From NCBI RefSeq assembly GCF_057098645.1, contig NZ_CM169472.1: DNA of 64,000 nt; one strand, written 5' to 3'. The position numbers and the translations under genes are program-made. Positions 4,496 through 57,903 of the stretch are shown piece by piece. The notes under the pieces are model-generated. The model had not been told where the DNA came from and did no database searches. It saw only the letters and a list, made by a program, of their open reading frames with translations. The stretch's first letter is position 1. Each line of letters starts with the position of its first letter.

Positions 4496-4539
4496 TAGTT
4501 CGGATTTTACTTAACCGGGTAAATTCGCCCGGTTTTCGC

Positions 4540-7597: not shown

Positions 7598-7617
7598 TTA
7601 GGATTTTGTTATTTAAA
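7598..7617 (+). promoter_or_regulatory. GAD box (GadE binding site) in the gadBC promoter
   Basis: Exact 20-nt match TTAGGATTTTGTTATTTAAA about 80 nt upstream of the gadB start. Confidence 0.65.
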
Positions 7618-7696
7618 CACGAGTCCTTTGCACTTGCTTACTTTATCGATAAATCCTACTTTTTTAATGCGATCCAATCATTTTAAGGAGTTTAAA

Positions 7697-9097
7697 ATGG
7701 ATAAGAAGCAAGTAACGGATTTAAGGTCGGAACTACTCGATTCACGTTTTGGTGCGAAGTCTATTTCCACTATCGCAGAATCAAAACGTTTTCCGCTGCA
7801 CGAAATGCGCGACGATGTCGCATTTCAGATTATCAATGACGAATTATATCTTGATGGCAACGCTCGTCAGAACCTGGCCACTTTCTGCCAGACCTGGGAC
7901 GACGAAAATGTCCACAAGTTGATGGATTTATCCATTAACAAAAACTGGATCGACAAAGAAGAATATCCGCAATCTGCAGCCATCGACCTGCGTTGCGTAA
8001 ATATGGTTGCCGATCTGTGGCATGCGCCTGCGCCGAAAAATGGTCAGGCCGTTGGCACCAACACCATTGGTTCTTCCGAGGCCTGTATGCTCGGCGGGAT
8101 GGCGATGAAATGGCGTTGGCGCAAGCGTATGGAAGCTGCAGGCAAACCAACGGATAAACCAAACCTGGTGTGCGGTCCGGTGCAAATCTGCTGGCATAAA
8201 TTCGCCCGCTACTGGGATGTGGAGCTGCGTGAGATCCCTATGCGCCCCGGTCAGTTGTTTATGGACCCGAAACGCATGATTGAAGCCTGCGACGAAAACA
8301 CCATCGGCGTGGTGCCGACTTTCGGCGTGACCTACACCGGTAACTATGAGTTCCCGCAACCGCTGCACGATGCGCTGGATAAATTCCAGACCGACACCGG
8401 TATCGACATCGACATGCACATCGACGCCGCCAGCGGTGGCTTCCTGGCACCGTTCGTCGCCCCGGATATCGTCTGGGACTTCCGCCTGCCGCGTGTGAAA
8501 TCGATCAGTGCTTCAGGCCATAAATTCGGTCTGGCTCCGCTGGGCTGCGGCTGGGTTATCTGGCGTGATGAAGAAGCGCTGCCGCAGGAACTGGTGTTCA
8601 ACGTTGACTACCTCGGTGGTCAGATTGGTACTTTCGCCATCAACTTCTCCCGCCCGGCGGGTCAGGTGATTGCACAGTACTATGAATTCCTGCGCCTTGG
8701 TCGTGAAGGCTATACCAAAGTACAGAACGCCTCTTACCAGGTTGCCGCTTATCTGGCGGATGAAATCGCCAAACTGGGGCCGTATGAGTTCATCTGTACG
8801 GGTCGCCCGGACGAAGGCATCCCGGCGGTTTGCTTCAAACTGAAAGATGGTGAAGATCCGGGATACACCCTGTACGACCTCTCTGAACGTCTGCGTCTGC
8901 GCGGCTGGCAGGTTCCGGCCTTCACTCTCGGCGGTGAAGCCACCGACATCGTGGTGATGCGCATTATGTGTCGTCGCGGCTTCGAAATGGACTTTGCTGA
9001 ACTGTTGCTGGAAGACTACAAAGCCTCCCTGAAATATCTCAGCGATCACCCGAAACTGCAGGGTATTGCCCAACAGAACAGCTTTAAACATACCTGA
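7697..9097 (+). CDS. gadB: Glutamate decarboxylase beta
   Basis: 466 aa from [25 protein letters not shown]-dependent decarboxylase; ORF track extends upstream but this start matches the known N-terminus. Confidence 0.95.
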
Positions 9098-9117
9098 TAA
9101 CGTTTAACGGTAACGGT

Positions 9118-9150
9118 GTCCCGAAACGAACCCGTTTCGGGACAATTTCC
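9118..9150 (+). terminator. Stem-loop downstream of gadB (GTCCCGAAACG-AAC-CCGTTTCGGGAC)
   Basis: Perfect inverted repeat seen in sequence; weak U-tract. Confidence 0.45.
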
Positions 9151-9252
9151 AAAGTCTGTTCACTGGCATTAGCAACGGAAAATATTGTTCTGAATACGCT
9201 TCAGAACAAAACAGGTGCGGTTCCGACAGGAATACCGTTTTAGGGGGATAAT

Positions 9253-10788
9253 ATGGCTACATCAGTACAGACAGGTAAAGCTAAGCAGCTCACATTACTC
9301 GGATTCTTTGCCATAACGGCATCGATGGTAATGGCTGTTTATGAATACCCTACCTTCGCAACATCGGGCTTTTCATTAGTCTTCTTCCTGCTATTAGGCG
9401 GGATTTTATGGTTTATTCCCGTGGGACTTTGTGCTGCGGAAATGGCCACCGTCGACGGCTGGGAAGAAGGTGGTGTCTTCGCCTGGGTATCAAATACTCT
9501 GGGGCCGAGATGGGGATTTGCAGCGATCTCATTTGGCTATCTGCAAATCGCCATTGGTTTTATTCCGATGCTCTATTTCGTGTTAGGGGCACTCTCCTAC
9601 ATCCTGAAATGGCCAGCGCTGAATGAAGACCCCATTACCAAAACTATTGCAGCACTCATCATTCTTTGGGCGCTGGCATTAACGCAGTTTGGTGGCACGA
9701 AATACACGGCGCGAATTGCTAAAGTTGGCTTCTTCGCCGGTATCCTGTTACCTGCATTTATTTTGATCGCATTAGCGGCTATTTATCTGCACTCCGGTGC
9801 CCCCGTTGCTATCGAAATGGATTCGAAGACCTTCTTCCCTGACTTCTCTAAAGTGGGCACCCTGGTAGTATTTGTTGCCTTCATTTTGAGTTATATGGGC
9901 GTAGAAGCATCCGCAACCCACGTCAATGAAATGAGCAACCCAGGGCGCGACTATCCGTTGGCTATGTTACTGCTGATGGTGGCGGCAATCTGCTTAAGCT
10001 CTGTTGGTGGTTTGTCTATTGCGATGGTCATTCCGGGTAATGAAATCAACCTCTCCGCAGGGGTAATGCAAACCTTTACCGTTCTGATGTCCCATGTGGC
10101 ACCGGAAATTGAGTGGACGGTTCGCGTGATCTCCGCACTGCTGTTGCTGGGTGTTCTGGCGGAAATCGCCTCCTGGATTGTTGGTCCTTCTCGCGGGATG
10201 TATGTCACAGCGCAGAAAAACCTGCTGCCAGCGGCATTCGCTAAAATGAACAAAAATGGCGTACCGGTAACGCTGGTCATTTCGCAGCTGGTGATTACTT
10301 CTATCGCGTTGATCATCCTCACCAATACCGGTGGCGGTAACAACATGTCCTTCCTGATCGCACTGGCGCTGACGGTGGTGATTTATCTGTGTGCTTATTT
10401 CATGCTGTTTATTGGCTACATTGTGTTGGTTCTTAAACATCCTGACTTAAAACGCACATTTAATATCCCTGGTGGTAAAGGGGTGAAACTGGTCGTGGCT
10501 ATTGTCGGTCTGCTGACTTCAATTATGGCGTTTATTGTTTCCTTCCTGCCGCCGGATAATATCCAGGGTGACTCTACCGATATGTATGTTGAATTACTGG
10601 TCGTTAGTTTCCTGGTGGTACTTGCCCTGCCCTTTATTCTCTATGCTGTTCATGATCGTAAAGGCAAAGCGAATACCGGCGTCACTCTGGAGCCAATCAA
10701 CAGTAAGAACGCACCAAAAGGTCACTTCTTCCTGCACCCGCGTGCACGTTCACCACACTATATTGTGATGAATGACAAGAAACACTAA
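9253..10788 (+). CDS. gadC: Glutamate:GABA antiporter
   Basis: 511 aa polytopic membrane protein downstream of gadB. Confidence 0.95.
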
Positions 10789-14016: not shown

Positions 14017-16416
14017 ATGAAGCTAACCGATGCGGATAATGCCGCCGATGGCATTTTTTTCCCCGCCCTTGAGCAAAATATGATGGGTGCGGTGTTAATT
14101 AACGAAAATGATGAAGTGATGTTTTTCAACCCCGCCGCAGAGAAGCTCTGGGGGTACAAACGTGAAGAAGTCATTGGCAATAACATTGATATGCTGATTC
14201 CGCGGGATTTGCGTCCTGCGCATCCTGAATACATTCGTCACAACCGTGAAGGCGGTAAAGCGCGCGTCGAGGGGATGAGTCGGGAGCTGCAGCTGGAGAA
14301 AAAAGACGGCAGTAAAATCTGGACCCGTTTTGCGCTATCGAAAGTGAGCGCCGAGGGGAAAGTTTATTACCTGGCGCTGGTACGGGATGCCAGCGTAGAA
14401 ATGGCGCAAAAAGAACAGACCAGACAATTGATTATTGCCGTTGACCATCTCGACCGACCGGTGATTGTCCTCGATCCGGAACGCCATATTGTGCAGTGCA
14501 ATCGCGTATTTACCGAAATGTTTGGTTACTGCATTAGCGAAGCCAGCGGTATGCAGCCCGATACACTCCTGAACATTCCTGAATTCCCTGCCGATAACCG
14601 CATTCGTTTACAACAGTTGCTATGGAAAACCGCCCGCGATCAGGACGAATTTCTGCTGTTGACGCGCACCGGTGAAAAAATCTGGATTAAAGCCTCTATC
14701 AGCCCGGTTTATGACGTGCTCGCGCATCTGCAGAACCTGGTAATGACTTTCTCGGATATCACCGAAGAACGGCAAATCCGCCAGCTTGAAGGCAATATTC
14801 TCGCCGCCATGTGCAGCAGTCCGCCATTTCATGAAATGGGGGAAATCATTTGTCGTAATATCGAATCTGTTCTCAACGAATCGCATGTTTCGCTGTTCGC
14901 ACTGCGCAACGGGATGCCGATACACTGGGCGTCATCTTCGCACGGTGCAGAAGTTCAAAATGCGCAAAGCTGGTCAGCGACCATTCGTCAGCGTGATGGC
15001 GCGCCTGCGGGGATCCTGCAAATTAAAACCTCCTCAGGAGCAGAAACCAGCGCCTTTATCGAACGCGTGGCAGATATCAGCCAGCATATGGCCGCGCTGG
15101 CGCTGGAACAGGAAAAAAGCCGTCAGCATATTGAACAACTCATCCAATTTGATCCGATGACCGGTCTGCCAAATCGCAATAACCTGCACAATTACCTCGA
15201 TGACCTGGTCGACAAAGCCGTCTCTCCGGTGGTGTATCTCATCGGTGTTGACCATATTCAGGATGTGATTGATAGCCTTGGCTATGCGTGGGCCGATCAG
15301 GCATTGCTGGAAGTGGTCAATCGCTTTCGTGAAAAACTCAAACCGGATCAGTATCTCTGTCGTATCGAAGGTACGCAGTTTGTCCTCGTGAGCCTGGAAA
15401 ACGACGTCAGTAACATTACCCAAATCGCCGATGAGCTACGGAATGTGGTCAGCAAGCCGATAATGATTGACGATAAACCCTTCCCGCTTACCTTGAGTAT
15501 TGGCATCAGCTACGACGTGGGTAAAAACCGCGATTACCTGCTCTCCACTGCTCACAATGCAATGGATTATATTCGCAAGAATGGCGGTAACGGCTGGCAG
15601 TTCTTCAGCCCGGCGATGAACGAAATGGTAAAAGAGCGTTTGGTTTTAGGCGCAGCGCTGAAAGAGGCGATTAGCAATAACCAACTGAAACTGGTTTACC
15701 AGCCGCAAATCTTCGCAGAAACGGGTGAACTCTACGGCATCGAAGCCCTTGCTCGCTGGCACGATCCCCAGCATGGTCATGTGCCCCCTTCACGGTTTAT
15801 TCCTCTCGCAGAAGAGATTGGTGAAATCGAAAATATTGGGCGCTGGGTCATCGCGGAAGCTTGCCGTCAGTTAGCAGAATGGCGTAGCCAGAATATTCAT
15901 ATCCCGGCGTTATCCGTGAACTTGTCAGCGCTGCACTTTCGCAGTAATCAGCTGCCTAATCAGGTATCTGATGCAATGCACGCCTGGGGTATTGACGGCC
16001 ACCAGCTGACGGTAGAAATCACGGAAAGCATGATGATGGAACACGATACCGAAATCTTTAAGCGCATTCAGATCCTGCGTGATATGGGCGTGGGTTTATC
16101 GGTAGATGATTTTGGCACGGGCTTTTCCGGATTATCCCGCTTAGTCAGTCTTCCGGTAACGGAAATCAAAATTGACAAAAGTTTTGTCGATCGTTGTCTG
16201 ACGGAAAAACGCATCCTTGCCTTACTTGAAGCCATTACCAGCATTGGGCAAAGCCTCAATTTAACCGTCGTGGCGGAAGGCGTCGAAACCAAAGAGCAAT
16301 TTGAGATGCTACGCAAGATCCACTGTCGCGTTATTCAGGGATATTTCTTTTCCCGCCCCCTACCCGCCGAAGAAATTCCAGGCTGGATGAGCAGCGTGTT
16401 ACCGCTGAAAATCTGA
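14017..16416 (+). CDS. dosP: Heme-PAS c-di-GMP phosphodiesterase DosP
   Basis: 799 aa from MKLTDADNAADGIFFPALEQ; PAS-GGDEF-EAL architecture; starts immediately after dosC. Confidence 0.9.
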   Translation: MKLTDADNAADGIFFPALEQNMMGAVLINENDEVMFFNPAAEKLWGYKREEVIGNNIDMLIPRDLRPAHPEYIRHNREGGKARVEGMSRELQLEKKDGSKIWTRFALSKVSAEGKVYYLALVRDASVEMAQKEQTRQLIIAVDHLDRPVIVLDPERHIVQCNRVFTEMFGYCISEASGMQPDTLLNIPEFPADNRIRLQQLLWKTARDQDEFLLLTRTGEKIWIKASISPVYDVLAHLQNLVMTFSDITEERQIRQLEGNILAAMCSSPPFHEMGEIICRNIESVLNESHVSLFALRNGMPIHWASSSHGAEVQNAQSWSATIRQRDGAPAGILQIKTSSGAETSAFIERVADISQHMAALALEQEKSRQHIEQLIQFDPMTGLPNRNNLHNYLDDLVDKAVSPVVYLIGVDHIQDVIDSLGYAWADQALLEVVNRFREKLKPDQYLCRIEGTQFVLVSLENDVSNITQIADELRNVVSKPIMIDDKPFPLTLSIGISYDVGKNRDYLLSTAHNAMDYIRKNGGNGWQFFSPAMNEMVKERLVLGAALKEAISNNQLKLVYQPQIFAETGELYGIEALARWHDPQHGHVPPSRFIPLAEEIGEIENIGRWVIAEACRQLAEWRSQNIHIPALSVNLSALHFRSNQLPNQVSDAMHAWGIDGHQLTVEITESMMMEHDTEIFKRIQILRDMGVGLSVDDFGTGFSGLSRLVSLPVTEIKIDKSFVDRCLTEKRILALLEAITSIGQSLNLTVVAEGVETKEQFEMLRKIHCRVIQGYFFSRPLPAEEIPGWMSSVLPLKI

Positions 16417-16427
16417 CAAATTCCTCT

Positions 16428-16450
16428 CGCCCGCACTCGCGGGTTTTCAT
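16428..16450 (+). terminator. Rho-independent terminator after dosP
   Basis: CGCCCGC-ACTC-GCGGG followed by TTTTCATTT. Confidence 0.5.
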
Positions 16451-16613
16451 TTAACGTGACACTGTCACTTAAATACTGTGATTTCAGCTACGATTCCGGG
16501 AGATTCCTTCCTTAACTTCCCCTCTTGCACCAAAACTGCACTACGCTGCACAAATGTTGATCAAAAGTTAAAAAATATAACTTTCAGCCAGCATTCTGGC
16601 GCTTATCCCGGCA

Positions 16614-16630
16614 TGGCATGAGATCTGCAT
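16614..16630 (+). promoter_or_regulatory. Candidate sigma-54 promoter for the ddp operon (TGGCAT-N5-CTGCAT)
   Basis: GG and GC elements with correct -24/-12 spacing, about 44 nt upstream of the ddpX start. Confidence 0.35.
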
Positions 16631-16673
16631 AAGTGGAAAGCGCAGCAATTTTTGTCTTATACAGGAACCGTTT

Positions 16674-17255
16674 ATGTCGGATACCACCGAACTGGTTGAT
16701 TTAGCCGTGACCTTCCCTGATCTGGAGATCGAATTGAAATACGCCTGCGCTGATAACATCACAGGTAAAGCTATTTATCAGCAAGCGCGTTGTCTGCTAC
16801 ACAAGGATGCGATTACCGCGCTGGCGAAAAGTATCAGTATCGCCCAGCTATCAGGCTTACAACTGGTGATTTACGATGCGTATCGCCCACAACAAGCACA
16901 GGCGATGTTGTGGCAAGCCTGCCCAGACCCGCAATATGTTGTTGATGTGACGGTCGGTTCTAATCACAGCCGTGGCACGGCGATCGACCTGACGCTTCGT
17001 GATGAGCACGGGAACATCCTCGATATGGGCGCAGGATTCGATGAAATGCACGAACGTTCCCATGCTTACCATCCTTCCGTCCCGCCCGCCGCTCAGCGCA
17101 ATCGGCTGTTGCTGAATGCGATTATGACTGGTGGCGGTTTTGTCGGTATCTCCAGCGAATGGTGGCACTTCGAATTACCCCAGGCAGCGAGTTACCCTCT
17201 GCTCGCTGATCAATTCTCTTGTTTTATATCCCCTGGCACACAGCACGTCAGTTAA
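16674..17255 (+). CDS. ddpX: D-Ala-D-Ala dipeptidase (VanX homologue)
   Basis: 193 aa; VanX-type zinc-ligand motif SNHSRGTAIDLTL. Confidence 0.9.
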   Translation: MSDTTELVDLAVTFPDLEIELKYACADNITGKAIYQQARCLLHKDAITALAKSISIAQLSGLQLVIYDAYRPQQAQAMLWQACPDPQYVVDVTVGSNHSRGTAIDLTLRDEHGNILDMGAGFDEMHERSHAYHPSVPPAAQRNRLLLNAIMTGGGFVGISSEWWHFELPQAASYPLLADQFSCFISPGTQHVS

Positions 17256-17268
17256 TCAGGAAACTGTC

Positions 17269-18819
17269 ATGAAGAGATCGATATCGTTTCGTCCCACATT
17301 GCTCGCGCTCGTCCTTGCCACAACTTTCCCGGTTGCGCACGCCGCCGTACCGAAAGATATGCTGGTGATTGGTAAGGCCGCCGATCCACAAACCCTCGAC
17401 CCGGCGGTAACAATAGATAATAACGACTGGACGGTGACCTACCCGTCTTATCAGCGACTGGTTCAGTACAAAACGGACGGTGATAAAGGCTCAACCGACG
17501 TTGAAGGCGATCTGGCAAGTAGCTGGAAAGCGTCTGACGATCAAAAAGAGTGGACGTTCACCCTGAAAGATAATGCTAAATTTGCCGATGGCACACCTGT
17601 CACTGCCGAAGCAGTAAAACTTTCTTTTGAGCGGCTACTAAAAATCGGCCAGGGGCCAGCAGAAGCATTTCCCAAAGATTTAAAGATTGATGCTCCCGAC
17701 GAACATACGGTGAAGTTTACCCTTAGCCAGCCATTTGCACCGTTCCTCTACACGCTGGCGAATGACGGTGCATCCATTATCAATCCGGCGGTCTTAAAGG
17801 AACATGCAGCGGATGATGCTCGCGGCTTCCTCGCGCAAAATACCGCCGGTTCCGGACCATTTATGCTGAAAAGCTGGCAAAAAGGTCAGCAATTAGTTCT
17901 GGTGCCAAATCCGCATTACTCCGGCAATAAACCGAACTTTAAGCGAGTATCGGTAAAAATTATCGGTGAAAGTGCCTCCCGTCGCCTGCAGCTCTCCCGT
18001 GGCGACATTGACATTGCCGATGCGCTGCCGGTGGATCAACTCAACGCCCTGAAGCAGGAAAATAAAATCAATGTGGCAGAGTATCCGTCACTGCGCGTCA
18101 CCTATCTGTATCTGAATAACAGCAAAGCGCCACTTAATCAGGCTGATCTGCGTCGGGCCATTTCCTGGTCTACCGATTATCAGGGCATGGTTAACGGCAT
18201 TCTGAGTGGTAACGGAAAACAGATGCGCGGCCCGATTCCGGAAGGCATGTGGGGCTACGATGCGACGGCAATGCAATACAACCATGACGAAACGAAAGCC
18301 AAAGCTGAATGGGATAAAGTGACGAGCAAACCCACCATCCTGACGTTTCTCTACTCCGATAACGATCCGAACTGGGAGCCTATTGCTCTGGCGACACAAT
18401 CCAGTCTCAACAAGCTGGGCATCAATGTGAAGCTGGAAAAGCTGGCGAACGCCACCATGCGCGACAGAGTGGGTAAAGGTGATTACGACATTGCGATTGG
18501 CAACTGGAGTCCGGATTTTGCCGACCCGTATATGTTTATGAATTACTGGTTTGAGTCCGACAAAAAAGGTCTGCCGGGTAACCGCTCGTTCTATGAAAAC
18601 AGTGAGGTCGATAAGTTACTGCGCAATGCGCTCGCGACCACCGACCAGACGCAGCGTACCCGAGACTACCAGCAGGCACAGAAAATCGTCATTGATGACG
18701 CTGCTTATGTGTACCTGTTCCAGAAAAACTACCAACTGGCGATGAACAAAGAGGTGAAAGGCTTTGTGTTCAATCCCATGCTGGAACAGGTCTTCAATAT
18801 CAATACCATGAGTAAATAA
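17269..18819 (+). CDS. ddpA: D-Ala-D-Ala ABC transporter periplasmic binding protein
   Basis: 516 aa from MKRSISFRPTLLAL with signal peptide; family 5 solute-binding protein. Confidence 0.9.
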   Translation: MKRSISFRPTLLALVLATTFPVAHAAVPKDMLVIGKAADPQTLDPAVTIDNNDWTVTYPSYQRLVQYKTDGDKGSTDVEGDLASSWKASDDQKEWTFTLKDNAKFADGTPVTAEAVKLSFERLLKIGQGPAEAFPKDLKIDAPDEHTVKFTLSQPFAPFLYTLANDGASIINPAVLKEHAADDARGFLAQNTAGSGPFMLKSWQKGQQLVLVPNPHYSGNKPNFKRVSVKIIGESASRRLQLSRGDIDIADALPVDQLNALKQENKINVAEYPSLRVTYLYLNNSKAPLNQADLRRAISWSTDYQGMVNGILSGNGKQMRGPIPEGMWGYDATAMQYNHDETKAKAEWDKVTSKPTILTFLYSDNDPNWEPIALATQSSLNKLGINVKLEKLANATMRDRVGKGDYDIAIGNWSPDFADPYMFMNYWFESDKKGLPGNRSFYENSEVDKLLRNALATTDQTQRTRDYQQAQKIVIDDAAYVYLFQKNYQLAMNKEVKGFVFNPMLEQVFNINTMSK

Positions 18820-18820
18820 C

Positions 18821-19843
18821 GTGACCTTCTGGAGTATTTTACGCCAACGCTGCTGGGGGCTGGTGCTCGTGGTGGCGGGCGTCTGCGTGATTACGTTTAT
18901 TATCTCGCATCTGATCCCTGGTGATCCGGCGCGGTTACTGGCGGGTGACCGCGCCAGCGATGCTATCGTGGAAAATATTCGCCAGCAACTGGGGCTGGAC
19001 CAGCCACTGTACGTACAGTTTTACCGCTACGTCAGCGATCTGTTTCATGGTGACCTGGGGACATCCATTCGTACCGGGCGTCCGGTGCTGGAAGAGTTGC
19101 GCATATTCTTCCCGGCGACGCTGGAACTGGCATTTTGCGCGCTGCTACTGGCACTCCTGATTGGCATCCCGCTGGGCATACTCTCTGCAGTCTGGCGAAA
19201 TCGCTGGCTGGATCATCTGGTGCGAATAATGGCCATTACCGGAATCTCCACACCTGCGTTCTGGCTTGGGCTGGGCGTCATTGTGCTGTTTTATGGTCAT
19301 CTGCAAATTCTTCCCGGCGGCGGAAGGCTTGATGACTGGCTGGATCCACCAACGCACGTTACCGGCTTTTATCTGCTCGATGCGTTGCTTGAAGGCAACG
19401 GTGAAGTCTTCTTCAATGCGTTGCAACATCTCATCTTACCGGCATTAACGCTGGCGTTTGTTCACCTGGGGATTGTCGCCCGCCAGATCCGCTCAGCGAT
19501 GCTGGAACAATTGAGTGAAGACTACATTCGTACCGCCCGGGCCAGCGGCTTGCCCGGCTGGTATATCGTTCTATGTTATGCGCTACCCAATGCGTTGATC
19601 CCATCGATTACCGTATTAGGTCTGGCGCTGGGCGATTTGTTGTATGGCGCAGTGCTCACCGGAACCGTTTTTGCCTGGCCCGGAATGGGGGCATGGGTAG
19701 TGACATCAATACAGGCGCTCGACTTCCCGGCAGTGATGGGCTTTGCCGTCGTGGTTTCATTTGCTTATGTGCTGGTCAACCTGGTGGTGGATTTGCTCTA
19801 TTTGTGGATTGATCCGCGTATCGGACGTGGAGGTGATGAATGA
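18821..19843 (+). CDS. ddpB: Dipeptide ABC transporter permease
   Basis: 340 aa membrane protein. Confidence 0.9.
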   Translation: MTFWSILRQRCWGLVLVVAGVCVITFIISHLIPGDPARLLAGDRASDAIVENIRQQLGLDQPLYVQFYRYVSDLFHGDLGTSIRTGRPVLEELRIFFPATLELAFCALLLALLIGIPLGILSAVWRNRWLDHLVRIMAITGISTPAFWLGLGVIVLFYGHLQILPGGGRLDDWLDPPTHVTGFYLLDALLEGNGEVFFNALQHLILPALTLAFVHLGIVARQIRSAMLEQLSEDYIRTARASGLPGWYIVLCYALPNALIPSITVLGLALGDLLYGAVLTGTVFAWPGMGAWVVTSIQALDFPAVMGFAVVVSFAYVLVNLVVDLLYLWIDPRIGRGGDE

Positions 19844-20736
19844 TGCTAAGCGAGGAAACGTCCGCCGTACGCCCAGCAAAACAAACGCGATTTAACGGTG
19901 CAAAACTGGTATGGATGCTGAAAGGCAGTCCGCTCACCGTGACCGGCGCAGTCATCATTGTATTAATGCTATTGATGATGATTTTTTCACCGTGGCTTGC
20001 GACGCATGATCCCAACGCCATTGATTTAACCGCCCGCCTTTTGCCGCCTTCTGCGGCGCACTGGTTTGGCACCGATGAAGTGGGACGCGATCTGTTCAGC
20101 CGCGTACTGGTCGGCAGTCAGCAATCAATTCTCGCCGGATTAGTCGTGGTTGCCATTGCGGGTATGATTGGTTCGCTACTCGGATGTCTATCCGGTGTGC
20201 TTGGCGGACGCGCAGACGCCATCATCATGCGCATCATGGACATTATGCTGTCGATTCCTTCGTTGGTACTGACAATGGCACTGGCTGCCGCTCTCGGGCC
20301 GAGTTTATTTAACGCCATGCTGGCGATTGCTATTGTGCGAATTCCCTTTTATGTGCGCCTGGCGCGGGGGCAAGCATTAGTTGTACGCCAGTATACCTAT
20401 GTTCAGGCGGCGAAAACCTTTGGCGCGTCTCGTTGGCATCTGATCAGCTGGCATATTTTACGTAACTCCCTGCCGCCGCTGATCGTGCAGGCATCGCTGG
20501 ATATCGGTAGCGCGATTTTAATGGCCGCCACGTTGGGATTTATTGGCCTGGGTGCTCAACAACCGAGTGCTGAATGGGGCGCGATGGTAGCAAATGGTCG
20601 CAACTATGTACTCGATCAGTGGTGGTATTGCGCATTTCCGGGGGCAGCGATTTTGCTTACCGCCGTCGGGTTTAATCTCTTTGGTGATGGTATTCGCGAT
20701 CTGCTTGACCCGAAAGCAGGAGGAAAGCAGTCATGA
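19840..20736 (+). CDS. ddpC: Dipeptide ABC transporter permease
   Basis: 298 aa membrane protein, 4-nt overlap with ddpB. Confidence 0.9.
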   Translation: MMLSEETSAVRPAKQTRFNGAKLVWMLKGSPLTVTGAVIIVLMLLMMIFSPWLATHDPNAIDLTARLLPPSAAHWFGTDEVGRDLFSRVLVGSQQSILAGLVVVAIAGMIGSLLGCLSGVLGGRADAIIMRIMDIMLSIPSLVLTMALAAALGPSLFNAMLAIAIVRIPFYVRLARGQALVVRQYTYVQAAKTFGASRWHLISWHILRNSLPPLIVQASLDIGSAILMAATLGFIGLGAQQPSAEWGAMVANGRNYVLDQWWYCAFPGAAILLTAVGFNLFGDGIRDLLDPKAGGKQS

Positions 20737-21719
20737 CCCAACCCGTTCTGGACATTCAACAACTGCATTTGAGTTTCCCCGGTTTTAACGGTGATGTTCA
20801 CGCGCTCAACAATGTGTCCTTGCAGATTAACCGCGGTGAAATTGTCGGTCTGGTGGGAGAATCCGGCTCAGGTAAATCAGTCACCGCAATGCTGATTATG
20901 CGTCTGCTACCGACGGGCAGTTATTGCGTACATCGGGGGCAGATTTCCCTGCTGGGAGAAGATGTTCTTAACGCTCGGGAAAAACAGCTTCGTCAGTGGC
21001 GCGGCGCACGAGTGGCGATGATCTTTCAGGAACCGATGACCGCCCTCAATCCGACACGTCGAATAGGTCTTCAGATGATGGACGTAATCCGACATCATCA
21101 ACCAATAAGTCGTCGGGAAGCCAGAGCTAAAGCGATTGCCCTGCTGGAAGAGATGCAAATCCCGGATGCCGTGGAAGTTATGTCGCGCTATCCGTTTGAG
21201 CTTTCAGGTGGTATGCGCCAGCGGGTTATGATTGCGCTGGCATTTTCCTGCGAGCCGCAATTGATTATTGCCGACGAACCGACTACGGCGCTGGACGTCA
21301 CGGTACAGTTGCAGGTACTGCGTTTGCTTAAACATAAAGCTCGCGCCAGTGGAACTGCGGTACTGTTCATCAGCCATGATATGGCCGTGGTGTCGCAACT
21401 GTGCGATAGCGTTTACGTGATGTATGCCGGAAGCGTAATTGAAAGCGGCGTGACGGCAGACGTTATCCATCATCCCCGGCATCCGTATACCATTGGTTTG
21501 CTGCAATGCGCACCAGAACATGGAGTACCACGCCAGCCATTACCCGCCATTCCAGGGACGGTACCAAACCTCACCCATTTGCCTGACGGCTGCGCTTTTC
21601 GCGATCGTTGCTATGCGGCAGGTGCACAGTGTGAAAACGTCCCGGCGCTAACAGCGTGTGGTGACAACAACCAGCGCTGCGCCTGTTGGTATCCGCAGCA
21701 GGAGGTCATAAGTGTCTGA
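20733..21719 (+). CDS. ddpD: Dipeptide ABC transporter ATP-binding protein
   Basis: 328 aa; Walker A GESGSGKS, signature LSGGMRQR. Confidence 0.9.
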   Translation: MTQPVLDIQQLHLSFPGFNGDVHALNNVSLQINRGEIVGLVGESGSGKSVTAMLIMRLLPTGSYCVHRGQISLLGEDVLNAREKQLRQWRGARVAMIFQEPMTALNPTRRIGLQMMDVIRHHQPISRREARAKAIALLEEMQIPDAVEVMSRYPFELSGGMRQRVMIALAFSCEPQLIIADEPTTALDVTVQLQVLRLLKHKARASGTAVLFISHDMAVVSQLCDSVYVMYAGSVIESGVTADVIHHPRHPYTIGLLQCAPEHGVPRQPLPAIPGTVPNLTHLPDGCAFRDRCYAAGAQCENVPALTACGDNNQRCACWYPQQEVISV

Positions 21720-22638
21720 CACGTTATTAACGTTACGCGACGTCCATATCAATTTCCCGGCCCGTAAAAACTGGCTTGGTAAAACTACGGAACATGTTCA
21801 TGCCATTAATGGTATTGATTTACAGATCCGCCGTGGTGAAACCTTAGGGATCGTCGGCGAGTCAGGCTGCGGCAAAAGCACCCTCGCACAGCTTTTAATG
21901 GGTATGCTGCAACCGAGCCACGGGCAGTACATCCGTTCTGGCTCACAACGCATTATGCAGATGGTGTTTCAGGACCCGCTCTCTTCGCTCAATCCGCGCT
22001 TACCGGTGTGGCGCATCATCACAGAACCGCTCTGGATAGCTAAGCGTAGTAGTGAACAACAGCGGCGAGCGTTGGCAGAGGAGCTGGCTGTGCAGGTGGG
22101 TATTCGTCCGGAGTATCTCGACCGCCTGCCTCATGCGTTCTCCGGCGGGCAGCGGCAACGCATCGCCATTGCCAGAGCACTCTCTTCGCAGCCTGACGTG
22201 ATTGTGCTTGATGAGCCAACCTCTGCGCTGGATATCTCCGTGCAGGCACAGATCCTCAATTTACTGGTAACGCTACAGGAAAATCACGGGCTGACTTATG
22301 TGCTGATTTCACACAATGTCTCGGTGATACGTCATATGAGCGATCGGGTGGCGGTGATGTATCTCGGGCAGATTGTGGAATTAGGGGAAGCGCAACAGGT
22401 GCTAACGGCTCCGGCACATCCATACACCCGATTATTGCTGGATTCCCTCCCCGCCATTGATAAACCACTGGAGGAAGAATGGGCATTACGTAAAACGGAT
22501 CTGCCGGGAAACCGCACGTTGCCGCAAGGCTGTTTTTTCCGCGAACGTTGCCCCCTTGCAACCAGCGGATGCGAAGTCCGGCAATCATTAGCAATAAGGG
22601 AGGACGGACGTGAGATCCGTTGCTGGCGGGCGCTGTAG
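21712..22638 (+). CDS. ddpF: Dipeptide ABC transporter ATP-binding protein
   Basis: 308 aa; Walker A GESGCGKST, signature FSGGQRQR. Confidence 0.9.
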   Translation: MSDTLLTLRDVHINFPARKNWLGKTTEHVHAINGIDLQIRRGETLGIVGESGCGKSTLAQLLMGMLQPSHGQYIRSGSQRIMQMVFQDPLSSLNPRLPVWRIITEPLWIAKRSSEQQRRALAEELAVQVGIRPEYLDRLPHAFSGGQRQRIAIARALSSQPDVIVLDEPTSALDISVQAQILNLLVTLQENHGLTYVLISHNVSVIRHMSDRVAVMYLGQIVELGEAQQVLTAPAHPYTRLLLDSLPAIDKPLEEEWALRKTDLPGNRTLPQGCFFRERCPLATSGCEVRQSLAIREDGREIRCWRAL

Positions 22639-22674
22639 GACGCGGCATCCGGCTATTGCATGTCTGCGGAAACG

Positions 22675-23565
22675 TTATGCGTCATAGGTTTTTTTTAACG
22701 TTTCCATCAACGCCTGCGCCGCAGTAGAAAGCTTATGGTGTGACGAACGCAGTACGCCTACTCGTCGCTCAATCACTGGATTATCCAGTTCCAGACACAC
22801 TGCGCCCAGTTCGCTCATCTGCCTGCGGCACAGCGCAGGCACAGCGCTTCCTCCCAAACCGTTTGCCACCAGCCGCCCAACCGTAACCAGTTGATGGCTT
22901 TCCAGCGCCACTTCCAGTTGCGTTCCACTTTGTGCCAACTGCTCCTCCAGCATCAACCTGACGGCTGACGGTCGCTGGAGGGTGATAAAATCGAGCGTCA
23001 GCAAATCCCGCCAACTCACGCGTTGCCGATTTGCCAGTCGTGAATCGGCTGGAACAATAGCGACAAACCGATCCACGCCCAGTGGGGTAAAATGCACATG
23101 GCCGCAATAGTCAGGTTCAAAGGCAATACCCATCTCCACACGCCCTTCGCTCACCATTTCGATCACCTGCTCATTCACCACATCGTGCACGGTGACATTA
23201 ATCCCTGAATAACAATCGCGGAAGGTTTTCAGCACCGGAGGCAGAACGTTGGCTGCAAATGACGGCATCGCTGCCACCGAGACTTTTCCCCGCCTGAGCG
23301 TGAATCGCTGACGCATGGCCTCCTCAGTGTTATCCCAGTCAGCCAGCAAAGGCCGTGCCATCGACAATAGCGTTTCCCCCTCCTGGGTTAATGTCACTTT
23401 TCGCGTAGTACGCAGCAGTAAAGCGCCCCCTAAGGCATCTTCCAGTCCTTTAATGGTAAGACTTAGCGCAGGCTGCGACATATTCAGCCGTTCACTGGCA
23501 TGGGCAAAGTTCAGAGTGTGAGCTACCGCTAAAAACGCGCGTAACTGTTTGATGCTCATTTTCAT
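22675..23565 (-). CDS. LysR-family transcriptional regulator, divergent from the catabolic operon
   Basis: 296 aa; N-terminal HTH (IKQLRAFLAVAHTLNFAHASERLNMSQPALS). Confidence 0.85.
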   Translation of the reverse strand: MKMSIKQLRAFLAVAHTLNFAHASERLNMSQPALSLTIKGLEDALGGALLLRTTRKVTLTQEGETLLSMARPLLADWDNTEEAMRQRFTLRRGKVSVAAMPSFAANVLPPVLKTFRDCYSGINVTVHDVVNEQVIEMVSEGRVEMGIAFEPDYCGHVHFTPLGVDRFVAIVPADSRLANRQRVSWRDLLTLDFITLQRPSAVRLMLEEQLAQSGTQLEVALESHQLVTVGRLVANGLGGSAVPALCRRQMSELGAVCLELDNPVIERRVGVLRSSHHKLSTAAQALMETLKKTYDA

Positions 23566-23706
23566 CTGGCACTCCGTTAACCTACTGAATACATTTAATT
23601 AACATTATATTGATAAATAATACAAATGAATGAGTCACAAATTTAAAATTAACAAATCATTTTTTGCCCTTAATGATGTTGAAAAGGACAACTGGAGGGC
23701 AACTGT

Positions 23707-24414
23707 ATGGCTGGGTTGGATAAACGGGTCGCTACGTATCACGAGGCACTTGAAGGACTTACCAATGAGATGACGATTCTGGCAGGAGGTTTTGGCCTGT
23801 GCGGCATCCCGGAGAATCTGATTGCTGAAGTTCGCCACCGTGGAGTAACCGGATTAACGGTGGTTTCCAATAACTGTGGCGTAGATGGTTTTGGACTGGG
23901 TGTACTACTGGAAAGCCGACAGATCCGTAAAGTCGTCGCTTCTTATGTTGGCGAGAATGCTTTGTTTGAAAAACAGGTGCTTAACGGCGAACTGGAGGCG
24001 ATTCTCACACCACAAGGAACCCTGGCAGAACAACTGCGCGCAGGCGGCGCGGGTATCCCGGCGTTCTTTACTGCCACCGGTTACGGTACTCCCGTTGCCG
24101 AAGGGAAAGAAGTCCGCGAATTCAACGGTCGCCCGTACATCATGGAACAGGCTATCACCGGTGATTTTGCCCTGGTCAAAGGCTGGAAAGCCGACTGGTA
24201 CGGCAACGTGATTTATCGTCATACCGCGCAAAACTTCAACCCACTGATGGCGGCTGCCGGAAAAATCACCGTGGTGGAAGTGGAAGAAATAGTGCCACCT
24301 GGTGAACTTGATCCTGCCGCTATCCATACCCCGGGGATTTTTGTTAATCGCGTCATTCAGGGGCAATTTGAAAAACGCATTGAACAACGCACCCTTAGCC
24401 GCAAAGGAGCCTGA
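23707..24414 (+). CDS. 3-oxoacid (acetoacetate) CoA-transferase subunit A
   Basis: 235 aa AtoD/ScoA-like sequence. Confidence 0.85.
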
Positions 24415-24416
24415 CC

Positions 24417-25073
24417 ATGTTAACCCGTGAACAAATGGCGATGCGAGTCGCCCGCGAATTGCGCGATGGCTATTACGTCAATCTCGGCATTGGTATCCCG
24501 ACCCTGGTGGCAAACTACATTCCTGACGGGATGGATGTGATGTTGCAGTCAGAAAACGGTTTGCTGGGAATGGGCGCATTTCCTACGGAAGACGAACTGG
24601 ACGCCGACATGATTAATGCCGGTAAACAAACCGTTACCGCGCGGAAAGGCGCGGCAATTTTCGATTCGGCGCAATCATTCGCCATGATCCGTGGCGGTCA
24701 TGTGGATCTGACTGTACTTGGCGCATTTGAAGTGGATGTGAATGGCAACATTGCCTCATGGATGATCCCCGGCAAGATGGTTAAAGGCATGGGCGGTGCC
24801 ATGGATCTGGTTGCCGGTGCCGAGAATATTATTGTGGTAATGACCCACGCCTCCAAATCCGGCGAATCCAAACTGCTTCCTGACTGTACCCTTCCGTTGA
24901 CCGGCGCCGGATGCATCAAACGCGTCTTAACCGACCTTGCTCTGCTGGAAATTGCTGACGGAGCTTTCATTCTGCGCGAGCGCGCGCCGGGAATCAGCGT
25001 TGCGGAAATCATCGCCAAAACCGCCGGTAAGTTGTTTGTGCCGGAACATGTCCCGGAAATGCAATTCAACTGA
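24417..25073 (+). CDS. 3-oxoacid (acetoacetate) CoA-transferase subunit B
   Basis: 218 aa AtoA/ScoB-like; conserved SENG glutamate motif. Confidence 0.85.
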   Translation: MLTREQMAMRVARELRDGYYVNLGIGIPTLVANYIPDGMDVMLQSENGLLGMGAFPTEDELDADMINAGKQTVTARKGAAIFDSAQSFAMIRGGHVDLTVLGAFEVDVNGNIASWMIPGKMVKGMGGAMDLVAGAENIIVVMTHASKSGESKLLPDCTLPLTGAGCIKRVLTDLALLEIADGAFILRERAPGISVAEIIAKTAGKLFVPEHVPEMQFN

Positions 25074-54675: not shown

Positions 54676-55245
54676 ATGAGCCGATTCATCCCCATAGAAT
54701 TACACCATGCCAGCCGTCTGTTAAATCATGGCCCAACGGTCTTGATCACCAGTTTCGATGAGCAATCCCAGCGGCGTAACATTATGGCTGCAGCCTGGTC
54801 AATGCCGGTGGAGTTTGAACCGCCACGCGTCGCGATTGTGGTAGATAAATCGACATGGACCAGGGAGTTGATTGAACGTAACGGTAAGTTTGGCATCGTT
54901 ATCCCGGGCGTTGCAGCAACTAACTGGACGTGGGCGGTGGGAAGTGTGTCGGGGCGTGATGAAGATAAATTTAATTGCTATGGCATTCCGGTTGTGAGAG
55001 GCCCGGTATTTGGTTTGCCTCTGGTCGAGGAAAAATGTCTGGCGTGGATGGAGTGCCGCCTGCTACCTGCGACTTCTGCGCAACAAAAATACGATACGCT
55101 GTTTGGCGAGGTGGTATCAGCAGCGGCAGACGCACGGGTATTTGTCGAAGGCCGCTGGCAGTTTGATGATGATAAGCTCAATACGTTGCATCATTTAGGT
55201 GCTGGCACGTTTGTTACCAGCGGCAAGCGTGTTACGGCAGGTTAA
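54676..55245 (+). CDS. yddH: Flavin reductase-like domain protein
   Basis: 189 aa from MSRFIPIELHHA. Confidence 0.85.
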   Translation: MSRFIPIELHHASRLLNHGPTVLITSFDEQSQRRNIMAAAWSMPVEFEPPRVAIVVDKSTWTRELIERNGKFGIVIPGVAATNWTWAVGSVSGRDEDKFNCYGIPVVRGPVFGLPLVEEKCLAWMECRLLPATSAQQKYDTLFGEVVSAAADARVFVEGRWQFDDDKLNTLHHLGAGTFVTSGKRVTAG

Positions 55246-55248
55246 GCA

Positions 55249-55476
55249 TTACATGCTGTAACCGGGTTTCTTTATCAAAGCCTCCATTTGGGGCGCGATT
55301 TCGGCATCCCAGATAGCTTGCCAAGATTCTGGTTGAATCTGCTGTAGAGCAATGCTTATCGAACTGTCTTTACTGTTCATATGGCGAATAATAACGTCGG
55401 TAATATCTGCAGCAAGTGCTGCTTTTTGTTGTTCGTCCAGTTCACGCGGAAAACATTTAATGTCTATGTGCGGCAT
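55249..55476 (-). CDS. pptA: Tautomerase PptA (4-oxalocrotonate tautomerase family)
   Basis: 75 aa from [13 protein letters not shown] (Pro-1 after Met). Confidence 0.85.
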
Positions 55477-55574
55477 GATTACGCTCCTTTTGAAAGATGT
55501 CAGTAAAATTAACACACATTGTGAATGTCGTGTGTCCGGTAATGCGTTTTTACGACAATAATGCCAGGGCAAGA

Positions 55575-55928
55575 TTACGAAAGCCTTCTCCCCGCAAGGA
55601 CTGACGCCAGGTAGTTTCTGTCCATGGCTGCTTTTCGCATCTTACGTCTTAACCCAGCCTTGAATACCTTATCATTCGTCAAAATATTAATAGCAATGTG
55701 CCGTATCCCTGAAAATAATTCTGCTGCATTTCCTCTTCTTATTTTGCAGTCGTCTTCATTCATTACCACGTCCAGACGCCAGTGCAGCTTATTCTCCACG
55801 TGCCAGTGGTTTCGGATTGCTGTGGCGAACTTCTCTGCGGTTAAATCAGCAGAACTGATATAATATCTGACCGTCATTTCTGGCTCTTTCTTTTGTTCTG
55901 CTATTATGGACCGAAAGGAGACTGCCAC
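55575..55928 (-). pseudogene. C-terminal remnant of an H-repeat-associated (ISAs1-family) transposase
   Basis: 117 aa frame with motif [32 protein letters not shown] typical of the H-rpt protein C-terminus; the N-terminal ~260 aa are missing. Confidence 0.7.
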
Positions 55929-56246
55929 GCATAATTTCTTCAGCCCTTTCCATTCAAACGTGAAATCAATAAGTTCATCAGGAACATCGCAAACAATATG
56001 AAGACGGATTTCTTCTCTGCCGTGACTAAAATGCGAATTATTTAGTACAAAAAAAGCGGCGCACCTTGTTCTTTCCCAGATTCCTAATATGGCAACTTTA
56101 AGTTATCGCCGTCTATACTTATAGAAATTTCATCAGGGGTGACATAAATAGAATTTTTTTCATCCTCAATTGCCCATAACTGATTAATAAAAAAGTGTTT
56201 TTTATCATCTAATAACAAATCATCACATGTAGTAAAATTATTAATA

Positions 56247-56678
56247 TCAAAAAAAATCATCAGCACAATTAATTTTTAAATTTAAAAAATAAAGAAAAAT
56301 ATTATTGATTGATTTGAGTGTAAACCACTTGTCATTAACAAATTTATAGCTAGATGATTTTATAAAATAATAATTATCTCCTGGTATAAAGGCATACATA
56401 TCATTTAAGGTTATACTCAACAAAAAACTACGACCTGGTTTAATAGTATTCCAGCGTTCAGGATTCGTATTAATTTCAAAAGGACATGAACCACCTAAGT
56501 AGTCCAACGTGATATTCCCAGAGTTGATCCTGAATGGTTTTTTGCATATCGCATCATATTCATCTCCTTTTCCATCTTTTACTTTCATAGGTAGATAATA
56601 TTTAGAAAAAAAATACGTGGTAGAGCTATTGTTAGTAAAGGTTATGTTAGCAAAAATCCTGTTATTTTTTTTACTCAT
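56247..56678 (-). CDS. Hypothetical protein (AT-rich; probably continues by frameshift into ORF 56084..56266)
   Basis: 143 aa ORF; downstream 60 aa ORF in another frame begins 19 nt before its stop. Confidence 0.4.
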   Translation of the reverse strand: MSKKNNRIFANITFTNNSSTTYFFSKYYLPMKVKDGKGDEYDAICKKPFRINSGNITLDYLGGSCPFEINTNPERWNTIKPGRSFLLSITLNDMYAFIPGDNYYFIKSSSYKFVNDKWFTLKSINNIFLYFLNLKINCADDFF

Positions 56679-56956
56679 AGCTAATTGAGCATTGACATCC
56701 GCTATATAATTTATATGATTACATTTTTTCTTACACTCATCATAATTTTCGATAGGATAAATTAATGGTCTTCCTTTGATATCTCTCTCAAGCCCAAACC
56801 CGTATTTTTTATTAAAACCATTTCATCCGCAGTCGATTGAAAGGAATAGAAAAATATAATATTTACGATTGTCATTATTATGATTTTTTTATAGCTTGCA
56901 GCATTAATATATTTCTCGACTTATTAGTTAATGGAGAAGTGTTTTTTCTAATTCCG

Positions 56957-57184
56957 CTATTTTTTCTTAACTGAATTGCTTAATATTTCATCATTAATCG
57001 AGTCTATCTCACTTTCAATTAATCTTATTTCAAAATATCTTTCTATGTTATATGCATTCTCAAATATTTGATCTTTTTGTTTAGAGATCAGTTTAGTTGC
57101 AATACGGATATGTTCGTCATATGAAACTTCATCCTCTTTGCACGTTGAATATTTATCAGTAGTTGTATAATCCTGTGACCACAT
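56957..57184 (-). CDS. Hypothetical small acidic protein
   Basis: 75 aa ORF in AT-rich accessory block. Confidence 0.35.
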   Translation of the reverse strand: MWSQDYTTTDKYSTCKEDEVSYDEHIRIATKLISKQKDQIFENAYNIERYFEIRLIESEIDSINDEILSNSVKKK

Positions 57185-57266
57185 ACCACCTTTTTATTAT
57201 CCCCATAATACCACTGAATATGAGACATTTCATGACATAAAGTAGTAACATGAGAATCCTTTCCCG

Positions 57267-57716
57267 TTACTGGATTTTTTTGCCATCTCTATACTCAAAT
57301 TTTGCGCCTATGTTAATTATATAGGACATATCCTTACTTGGGCTGACGAATGCTGCAAATTCATTACAACCTGTATAATTTATAAAACTGCTCATTGTTA
57401 AATCATTAGCTATAATCATTAATCTTCTCACGCCATCCATCATAAGAAATCTAGCATTCATGCGCCTACCTGTATTATATCCATATTTTCTTATATTAAC
57501 TTCCTTATTTCCTTTAACACCAAAGATCTTACTGAAATAATATTCCTCCTGTGCTCCCCATCTCAAAAGATCATCTGCTCTTTTTATCAAAACCAACTTT
57601 TGTGCCTTACGAGCCTTATCAATCATTATTTTAAAATGATCAGTTATTTTTTGCTCTTTCACACATTCTTCTGGCTCTGGCTTTGGTTGTCCAGAAGTTT
57701 GATTATTATCGTCCAT
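57267..57716 (-). CDS. Hypothetical protein
   Basis: 149 aa from MDDNNQTSGQ with Shine-Dalgarno AAGGAC; tracked ORF extends 19 codons further upstream. Confidence 0.45.
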   Translation of the reverse strand: MDDNNQTSGQPKPEPEECVKEQKITDHFKIMIDKARKAQKLVLIKRADDLLRWGAQEEYYFSKIFGVKGNKEVNIRKYGYNTGRRMNARFLMMDGVRRLMIIANDLTMSSFINYTGCNEFAAFVSPSKDMSYIINIGAKFEYRDGKKIQ

Positions 57717-57903
57717 AGTGTCCTTCCATTGAGAGAAAATCATCATTCGCAAATAGCAACTAAAAAGCAGCATTACTTGACCTTTCCCTGCATAACAATA
57801 TTTATAAAATAATACGTTTTATGATCTCACCTTGGGCTCCCAACAAGATAATTTCAGTTTTAAAGACTTTCACGAAAAAAATATAGAAATACCTCACCAC
57901 CCT

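Follow-up and report, generated by a model that had tools for sequence, protein, structure and literature searches.

Two frameshifted genes in the AT-rich block

The DNA analyzed here, referred to below as the window, is a stretch of 64,000 nucleotides (nt) from contig NZ_CM169472.1 of the NCBI RefSeq assembly GCF_057098645.1. It derives from Escherichia coli and is 99.8–99.9% identical to about 26 complete genomes of the O145:H28 type. Its genes follow the order narZYWV, yddE, nhoA, yddH, pptA, an H-repeat remnant, an AT-rich block, genes for a C39 peptidase and a Cpi1-type immunity protein, a truncated vgrG gene, a PAAR protein gene and yncG. The subject of this study is the AT-rich block (56084–57716), which we regard, with a probability of roughly 0.88, as a decayed effector-immunity pair belonging to a type VI secretion system (T6SS) that was displaced by a newer cassette. 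Its strong AT-richness relative to the flanking core genes, already remarked upon in the initial annotation of this stretch, is borne out by the GC content, which is 27–35% over 56000–58250 compared with about 52% in the core genes (49–56% in nar-yddE-nhoA-yddH on the left); in the 5' part of vgrG it reaches 54–63%.

The initial annotation described the block as containing at least three small orphan open reading frames (ORFs) without recognizable domains and considered them potential uncharacterized immunity or effector proteins. The minus-strand ORFs that it listed are all present: one of 168 amino acids (aa) at 57267–57773, which is reduced to 149 aa if counted from the MDDNNQ start (ATG at 57716), and ORFs of 75 aa (56957–57184), 143 aa (56247–56678) and 60 aa (56084–56266). 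A further minus-strand ORF of 46 aa (57088–57228), absent from that list, starts at the M of the zinc motif HEMSH and carries the residues MSH. These ORFs are not orphans, however, but pieces of two frameshifted genes. At the same place, strains 32F4 (98.5% identical over the region) and GPT24-02 (99.3%) exhibit two intact 263-aa genes, which the NCBI Prokaryotic Genome Annotation Pipeline (PGAP) names “M35 family metalloendopeptidase” and “hypothetical protein.” A base-by-base alignment of the window with 32F4 revealed scattered substitutions and five 1-bp insertions or deletions (indels), every one of them located in an A/T homopolymer. Consequently, five “hypothetical” ORFs become two annotated pseudogenes.

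The first of these (gene 1, minus strand, 56930–57716) was delineated by alignment to the intact 32F4 protein WP_069913544 and encodes 263 aa when intact; about nine substitutions in 787 nt separate pseudogene and intact copy. Its pieces lie in three frames, represented by the 149/168-aa, the 46-aa and the 75-aa ORFs. The indels concern the runs at 57275–57281 (A7 in the window, A8 in the intact gene), 57191–57195 (A5 versus A6) and 56960–56965 (A6 versus A7). The 149-aa ORF (57267–57716) corresponds to the N-terminal half of the peptidase and lacks the catalytic motif, the codons for HEMSH are kept but are out of frame with the peptidase start, and the 75-aa ORF represents the C-terminal part with GGMW..D..NAYNIERYFE. 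The effect of the slip at 56960–56965 is limited to a shorter C-terminal tail; S88 shares this slip, and its gene is annotated as intact. The second pseudogene (gene 2, minus strand, 56084–56904; 263–273 aa when intact) is 98% identical to the intact 32F4 protein WP_069913509 and to P0030. It consists of a short N-terminal piece, the 143-aa ORF as its core and the 60-aa ORF as its C-terminus. The indel at 56805–56810 (A6 versus A7) severs the N-terminal signal-peptide segment, and the T8 run at 56249–56256 (T7 in intact orthologues) splits the core from the C-terminus, in line with the earlier suggestion that the 143-aa frame is shifted into the 60-aa frame. In total, two disabling slips are found in the peptidase gene and two in the immunity gene.

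It could be argued that the ORFs are separate functional small genes, either for orphan immunity proteins or for displaced C-terminal toxin fragments. The frames are open, they are located in the tail of a VgrG element, and orphans are retained at this locus elsewhere, as CFT073 and Nissle 1917 keep the immunity half only. Nevertheless, this explanation is very improbable. Compared with the intact 263-aa genes, to which the window is 98–99% identical, each ORF boundary falls on a homopolymer indel of 1 bp. The resulting frames leave the HExxH motif apart from the start of the peptidase and the immunity core apart from its signal peptide, and the ORF lengths vary between near-identical strains. 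The M35 pair is most likely inert in the window, judging from its reading frames, because no fragment holds both the peptidase start and HExxH, or both the immunity signal peptide and the core. The copies in the window are thus most likely non-functional remnants rather than active effector or immunity proteins.

The state of the five runs differs between genomes in a graded manner. If the runs are listed in the order 57275–57281, 57191–57195, 56960–56965, 56805–56810 and 56249–56256, their lengths are 8, 6, 7, 7 and 7 in 32F4 and GPT24-02, in which both genes are intact. S88 (8, 6, 6, 7, 7) differs by the shorter C-terminal tail only and its peptidase gene is annotated as intact. In ECNB21-M121 (8, 6, 7, 6, 8) the toxin gene is intact and the immunity gene is broken, whereas both genes are broken in four O145 genomes (7, 6, 6, 6, 8). 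The window and RM12275-C1 (7, 5, 6, 6, 8) exhibit one further slip in the peptidase gene. Three of the indels (57275–57281, 56805–56810 and 56249–56256) are common to the window and all O145 genomes checked.

All five differences fall into A/T runs of 5–8 bases, a classic class of sequencing error, and near-identical O145 assemblies disagree at 56606, 56665, 56883 and 56942. Both observations would fit an assembly artefact in which homopolymer errors hide two genes that are really intact. We assign this explanation little weight, as the three core indels are identical in the window and in five O145 assemblies produced independently in different laboratories and countries, and both indels of the immunity gene recur in ECNB21-M121. 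The same runs were read as intact in 32F4, GPT24-02 and S88. Moreover, at least 1000 contigs in NCBI, ENA and Logan, mostly of O145:H28, carry the exact 168-aa product, and the exact 75-, 143- and 60-aa products of the window are present on 35, 14 and 19 contigs, respectively. This recurrence indicates that assembly error is not the main explanation. Among near-identical genomes, at least nine A/T runs vary in length within about 1.6 kb (56084–57716), a variation to which both slippage and assembly error may contribute.

This density of variable runs among close relatives is also what would be expected of a phase-variable (contingency) locus, at which slipped-strand mispairing reversibly switches effector and immunity gene. 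One of the runs (approximately 56877–56883, A7 or A8) indeed decides whether the immunity protein starts with MLQAIKKIII... or MTIVN..., thereby toggling its start codon and signal peptide. Several features make such switching hardly credible, however. Two independent reversions would be needed to restore either gene, and the runs are short (5–8 bases), shorter than is typical of contingency loci. The state is fixed across the O145:H28 lineage, and the cognate vgrG is truncated, so that no delivery route would exist if the pair were switched on. Finally, ECNB21-M121, with its toxin gene intact and its immunity gene broken, fits neutrality better than regulated switching. Interpreted as the decay of a pair that is no longer maintained, the locus illustrates how fast AT-rich accessory cassettes can be lost by homopolymer slippage.

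At the corresponding locus of ECNB21-M121 (4048–5521 of the extracted sequence), the intact M35 toxin gene lies beside an immunity gene with both frameshifts. This arrangement suggests that the toxin is no longer delivered or expressed; it would be tolerable only in that case, or if immunity were supplied from elsewhere.

The cpe1-cpi1 cassette and the variable rhsE locus

In E. coli K-12, the region between pptA and yncG contains ydcC (an H-repeat), yncI', ydcD and rhsE', and the site in the window therefore corresponds to the variable rhsE locus. Of 5426 complete E. coli genomes, 644 contain the module found at window positions 56040–57780, in most cases directly behind vgrG. Hence, about 12% of complete E. 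coli genomes carry an M35-type pair, which has remained almost unstudied. At the same yddH-yncG locus, S88 exhibits a PAAR gene, a full vgrG gene of 801 aa, the M35 gene, the immunity gene and an ISAs1 remnant, and the start of the M35 gene overlaps the vgrG stop by 11 nt.

Comparison of the window with S88 by blastn yielded two blocks of homology. The first (58679–61500, 93.8% identity) comprises vgrG codons 1–488, PAAR and yncG, and the second (56027–57761, 98.2%) comprises both genes of the M35 pair together with the final 45 nt of vgrG. Between them, 884 bp of the 3' part of the S88 vgrG gene are replaced in the window by 917 bp (57762–58678). The replaced sequence covers vgrG codons 489–785, approximately, and only 45 nt of the vgrG 3' end are left before the M35 gene. 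It follows from these blocks that a cassette has overwritten the spike-forming 3' part of vgrG, thereby stranding the older pair downstream. In 32F4 and GPT24-02, the replacement is present while both genes of the M35 pair are still intact, which is consistent with replacement first and decay afterwards. The assumption that the block resembles the tail of a VgrG element with a displaced module has thus held up: an effector-immunity pair lies beside an H-repeat remnant at the site of K-12 rhsE, and comparison with other strains, one of the checks proposed in the initial annotation, makes the cassette replacement visible.

According to blastn, nothing equivalent to the incoming AT-rich cpe1-cpi1 cassette (57762–58678, minus strand) separates the two blocks of homology in S88 or CFT073. 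The cassette carries the gene for the C39-like cysteine peptidase (Cpe1-like; 58169–58540, minus strand; Pfam Peptidase_C39, E 5.4e-7) and the Cpi1-type immunity gene (57904–58194, minus strand), in agreement with the PGAP names. The right-hand junction of the cassette replacement is marked by the final 45 nt of what was once a full-length vgrG gene (57717–57761, minus strand), identified by blastn to S88. The truncated vgrG gene itself (58621–60144, minus strand) matches Pfam Phage_GPD and Phage_base_V and is labeled “incomplete, missing C-terminus” by PGAP. Its first 488 codons or so are homologous to S88 vgrG and are followed by 19 foreign codons and a stop, leaving a protein without the gp5-like C-terminal spike. 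The PAAR protein gene (60163–60447, minus strand; Pfam PAAR_motif, E 8.8e-21, and PGAP) forms the head of the island.

The Cpe1 family has been reported before (PMC12136450). That publication was rejected as an account of the locus in the window, as its toxin originates from ATCC 11775 and the locus is not described there. TsaP was likewise rejected as a match, being a PAAR fusion in RS218. The frame of the C39 gene is open upstream of its start over 58541–58678, to about 58675 (WIPAKIPEENISGKVFVEPVVLEGGAGGNWTVFDEVLDSNVIKQ...). Relative to the frame of the truncated vgrG, whose stop is at 58621, it is shifted by one base. This segment looks like a carrier-linker-toxin piece grafted onto vgrG at codon 488, approximately, and a single indel, for example in an A5 run, would fuse the two frames. 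A scan for promoters and terminators was uninformative, with 20 promoter-like sites compared with 14.8 ± 4.1 expected in this AT-rich DNA.

As seen in relatives, the original order was PAAR, a full-length vgrG, a 263-aa aspzincin-type peptidase and a protein of about 270 aa with a signal peptide. The intact peptidase would be loaded on the VgrG spike and fired into neighboring bacteria to act in their periplasm, while the intact second protein would be exported to the periplasm of the producer and neutralize incoming toxin there. In the lineage of the window, the 917-bp cpe1-cpi1 cassette replaced the 3' part of vgrG and separated the M35 pair from the spike, and the displaced pair, probably released from selection, gained 1-bp slips in A/T runs. 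The order of events at the E. coli rhsE/vgrG hotspot would accordingly be cassette replacement, loss of the immunity gene and loss of the toxin gene, which is useful for the annotation of O145:H28 genomes and for reading the turnover of T6SS arsenals.

This course resembles that of orphan modules behind rhs, cdiA and vgrG genes, where likewise a new cassette arrives at the 3' end of the carrier gene and the former module persists downstream. Unlike orphan toxin tips, however, the displaced effector is a complete separate gene in this case, and the carrier was truncated instead of being re-tipped in frame.

Other genomes show different outcomes at comparable places. The B2-phylogroup strains CFT073 (7079–9659 of the extracted locus) and Nissle 1917 have kept only the immunity-gene half of a module of the window type. 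Behind their vgrG genes, a different, shorter M35 paralogue (200 aa) is found, followed by several small hypothetical genes, and in CFT073 the retained immunity half is itself split into two ORFs. Two other E. coli proteins, P0035 and P0038, are in-frame vgrG'-'immunity fusions in which VgrG (...NMDTEV) is joined to residue 100 or so of the immunity protein (FSKYYLPMKV). They represent another route of decay, in which a deletion took out the 3' end of vgrG, the M35 gene in its entirety and the 5' end of the immunity gene.

The block is bordered by an internally deleted H-repeat of the ISEc1/ISAs1 family (55575–56053, minus strand), recognized by Pfam, PGAP and blastn. Its 117-aa ORF (55575–55928) matches Pfam DDE_Tnp_1 (E 5.8e-9), and PGAP lists the element as “ISAs1 family transposase, incomplete, missing N-terminus.” Positions 55575–56027 correspond to the last 453 nt of K-12 ydcC (nt 685–1137; 97.6% identity over the block 55200–56027, which includes pptA). 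The remnant accordingly encodes the C-terminal 151 of 378 transposase codons, so that the initial annotation had rightly recognized a C-terminal transposase part but put at one third a share that is about 40%. Directly joined to it are 27 bp of the H-repeat left end (56027–56053), which match K-12 DNA beginning 119 bp upstream of ydcC, and this direct join implies that about 776 bp were deleted internally. K-12 ydcC occupies the same position next to pptA, whereas the copy in the window is internally deleted and cannot give rise to a transposase. The remnant marks the edge of the variable rhsE/vgrG locus. A solo fragment of an H-repeat left end is located upstream of PAAR in the same orientation (60588–60716, minus strand); by blastn, it matches 130 bp of K-12 DNA at 93.8%, a stretch that starts 119 bp upstream of ydcC and includes the first 11 nt of this gene. 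With these two left ends, H-repeat DNA brackets the whole PAAR-vgrG island, an arrangement that would fit recombination between H-repeat copies as the way in which the locus was exchanged. A gene for an ISAs1 transposase is found beyond PAAR in 32F4 and ECNB21-M121.

The predicted peptidase and its relatives

When scanned singly with Pfam, the fragments indeed show no recognizable domains, as the initial annotation had stated; reassembled, the pieces of gene 1 form a recognizable metallopeptidase. The same applies to the profile searches it had recommended, since single fragments gave nothing useful and the profile of the reassembled gene 1 family finds aspzincins. Searched against all PDB sequences, this profile identified AsaP1 (2x3a; E 7e-7) as well as the Grifola peptidyl-Lys metalloendopeptidase GfMEP (1g12). 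Two distant relatives (P0024 and P0026) carry a precomputed match to the Pfam family Aspzincin_M35 (PF14521). Gene 1 itself yielded no match to PF02102 and none in NCBIfam, where the intact immunity protein likewise drew a blank.

Homologues of gene 1 are confined to the Enterobacteriaceae (E. coli, Salmonella, Buttiauxella, Franconibacter and Rahnella). Among 20 members of the family, H161-E162-x-x-H165 does not vary, and a GGM-x-T-x-D motif and the C-terminal sequence NAYNIERYFE are shared as well. The near-invariant Asp of GGM(x)T(x)D, D182, follows about 17 residues after HExxH, and some members exhibit GTSDY or GTDD. The alignment of the family hidden Markov model (HMM) to AsaP1 covers the GTDDLGYG region of AsaP1. 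Structure prediction with AlphaFold2 (AF2) pointed in the same direction: the gene 1 model (predicted local distance difference test, pLDDT, 88.9; predicted template modeling score, pTM, 0.87) retrieved GfMEP, AsaP1 and deuterolysin entries as the five top-ranking PDB structures in Foldseek (probability 1.00), and nothing else was found at E < 1. Based on the profile and the model, gene 1 is predicted to encode a zinc peptidase of the M35/aspzincin type. With AsaP1 (2x3a), GfMEP (1g12) and deuterolysin (1eb6), it would share the catalytic fold (template modeling score 0.72 to GfMEP), HExxH, a downstream Asp-containing motif and a C-terminal NA(D/Y)N..YF. Classical M35 members are secreted zymogens with a propeptide in cis, whereas the gene 1 effector has neither a signal peptide nor a cis propeptide and carries an N-terminal helical extension.

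The order of vgrG, an M35-like gene whose start overlaps the vgrG stop and a gene for a protein of 230–310 aa recurs in three settings. In Salmonella, a 62%-identical effector occurs within a T6SS cluster as well as at an isolated PAAR-vgrG island; in E. coli, the order occurs in a T6SS cluster with a VgrG of the gp5-trimer type and in clusters with VgrG of the DUF2345 type. For the last of these, experimental data are available: the M35PAR protein of E. coli PAR (AKO63_2955), encoded after a split VgrG/DUF2345, is reported to kill E. coli when sent to the periplasm, to be neutralized by the product of the next gene (AKO63_2956) and to be bridged to VgrG by DUF2345 (Commun Biol 2023, PMC10673891). 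The 262-aa gene after the frameshifted vgrG of PAR is 30% identical to the peptidase of the window type (E 4e-32) and its 308-aa neighbor matches the immunity protein of the window type (E 1e-21); these two genes were equated with AKO63_2955 and AKO63_2956 by gene order. The proteins can therefore not be called uncharacterized: PGAP names gene 1 “peptidase M35,” and a 30%-identical homologue and its partner have been studied experimentally (PMC10673891). The M35-type family is a known, barely studied T6SS effector-immunity family.

The PAR pair shares HExxH, GGM..D, NAYNIERYFE and the overlap of effector start and vgrG stop with the window type. It is intact, however, and lies inside the metV T6SS cluster behind a DUF2345-type VgrG that is reportedly needed for loading, whereas the copy in the window is frameshifted and cut off from VgrG. 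As pairs of the window type follow a VgrG of the gp5-trimer type without DUF2345, their mode of loading may differ from that of PAR. The metV cluster (15770–24429 of the extracted locus) contains two tandem modules of vgrG, an M35-like gene and a downstream gene. In the first, vgrG is intact and comes with an effector of 246 aa (33% identity to the window type) and a partner of 203 aa; in the second, vgrG is frameshifted.

Functional parallels exist beyond the M35 family. The C-terminal metallopeptidase of VgrG2b with PA0261, and Tpe1-Tpi1 (Wood et al., 2019, PMC6899460), likewise involve a T6SS-delivered zinc metallopeptidase that acts in the periplasm and is countered by a cysteine-containing immunity protein exposed to the periplasm (PMC6899460). 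The VgrG2b toxin is fused to VgrG, whereas the effector of the window type is a separate cargo gene. The VgrG2b C-terminal domain was rejected as a relative, as it is absent both from the PDB profile search (E up to 10) and from the Foldseek matches; it is a functional analogue only.

Several points weigh against reading the block as a decayed and displaced T6SS pair. The match of gene 1 to PF14521 remains below threshold (19.0 bits, compared with a gathering score of 30), and the identification of AKO63_2955 with the PAR gene compared here depends on gene order. The further runs that differ among near-identical O145 assemblies (56606, 56665, 56883 and 56942) mean that some individual indels could be assembly errors. 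In addition, some residual or new role is conceivable for the 149-aa N-terminal fragment or for a 143-aa core translated from an internal start. With these points taken into account, the finding in the window is real but ordinary, namely a pseudogenized member of a known T6SS effector-immunity family, and the wider interest lies in the homology between immunity protein and propeptide seen in its intact relatives rather than in the copy in the window.

The immunity protein and the aspzincin propeptide

The downstream proteins of different loci align over their full length at 23–42% identity and exhibit hydrophobic N-termini and near-invariant cysteines. A profile search with the immunity protein recovered 118 clusters of relatives at the 50% identity level, and none of 50 immunity homologues matched a Pfam family. 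The N-terminus (MLQAIKKIIIMTIVNIIFFYSFQSTA/DE) has a charged, hydrophobic and small-residue layout and is modeled by AF2 as a helix at residues 2–21; from its sequence, it looks like a Sec signal peptide. The AF2 model of the immunity protein (pLDDT 86) contains a central beta-sandwich at residues 70–190, approximately.

M35 peptidases are zymogens with inhibitory N-terminal pro-peptides (PMC11985622). The effector model matches aspzincin entries of mature length (163–177 residues: 1g12, 1ge6 and 1eb6), which the immunity model does not, and we therefore infer that the match of the immunity model lies in the AsaP1 propeptide. This relationship became apparent through structure comparison and profile-profile comparison only. 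The immunity profile found no match among PDB sequences up to E 10, and HMMER searches of the immunity family against two pro-aspzincins gave marginal scores only. For the profile-profile comparison, the propeptides of five pro-aspzincins were reassembled from flanking DNA on four contigs. Aligned by hhalign to the 50-member immunity alignment, they scored 55.9 (probability 94.6%, E 6.8e-8), compared with 13.9 for the best of the controls (30 column-shuffled alignments and one reversed). The alignment pairs immunity residues 81–178 with propeptide residues 73–159.

On the strength of these profiles and models, the immunity protein is predicted to be homologous to the aspzincin propeptide. We further consider it probable that the family represents a split aspzincin zymogen, in which the beta-sandwich of the immunity protein is a diverged, exported M35 propeptide that inhibits in trans over the active-site cleft. 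In intact copies, blockage of the cleft by the beta-sandwich in trans would mirror the cis action of the propeptide within the zymogen. Unlike in classical M35 peptidases, the propeptide-like domain of this family would thus be a separate exported protein. No statement of a split zymogen was found in the literature searched, which does not cover all journals. If correct, it would provide a concrete evolutionary route from a protease pro-domain to a T6SS immunity protein, and with it an explanation, open to testing, of how immunity to a T6SS protease works and arose. It would also predict specificity coding between paralogous pairs, as the V/I-K-R loop of the propeptide aligns with the Cys loop of the immunity protein.

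The five propeptides share a G-x-x-(V/I/Y)-K-R-x-x-P loop, which hhalign pairs with the sequence G-G-S-C-P-F of the immunity proteins, containing a near-invariant Cys. Should the propeptide Lys occupy the S1' pocket, another kind of plug would be required in the immunity proteins. P0239, a cluster mate of the 143-aa fragment of the window, bears the source name [quoted passage not shown]; this name would fit the propeptide homology and hints that a copy may sit on a phage-like contig.

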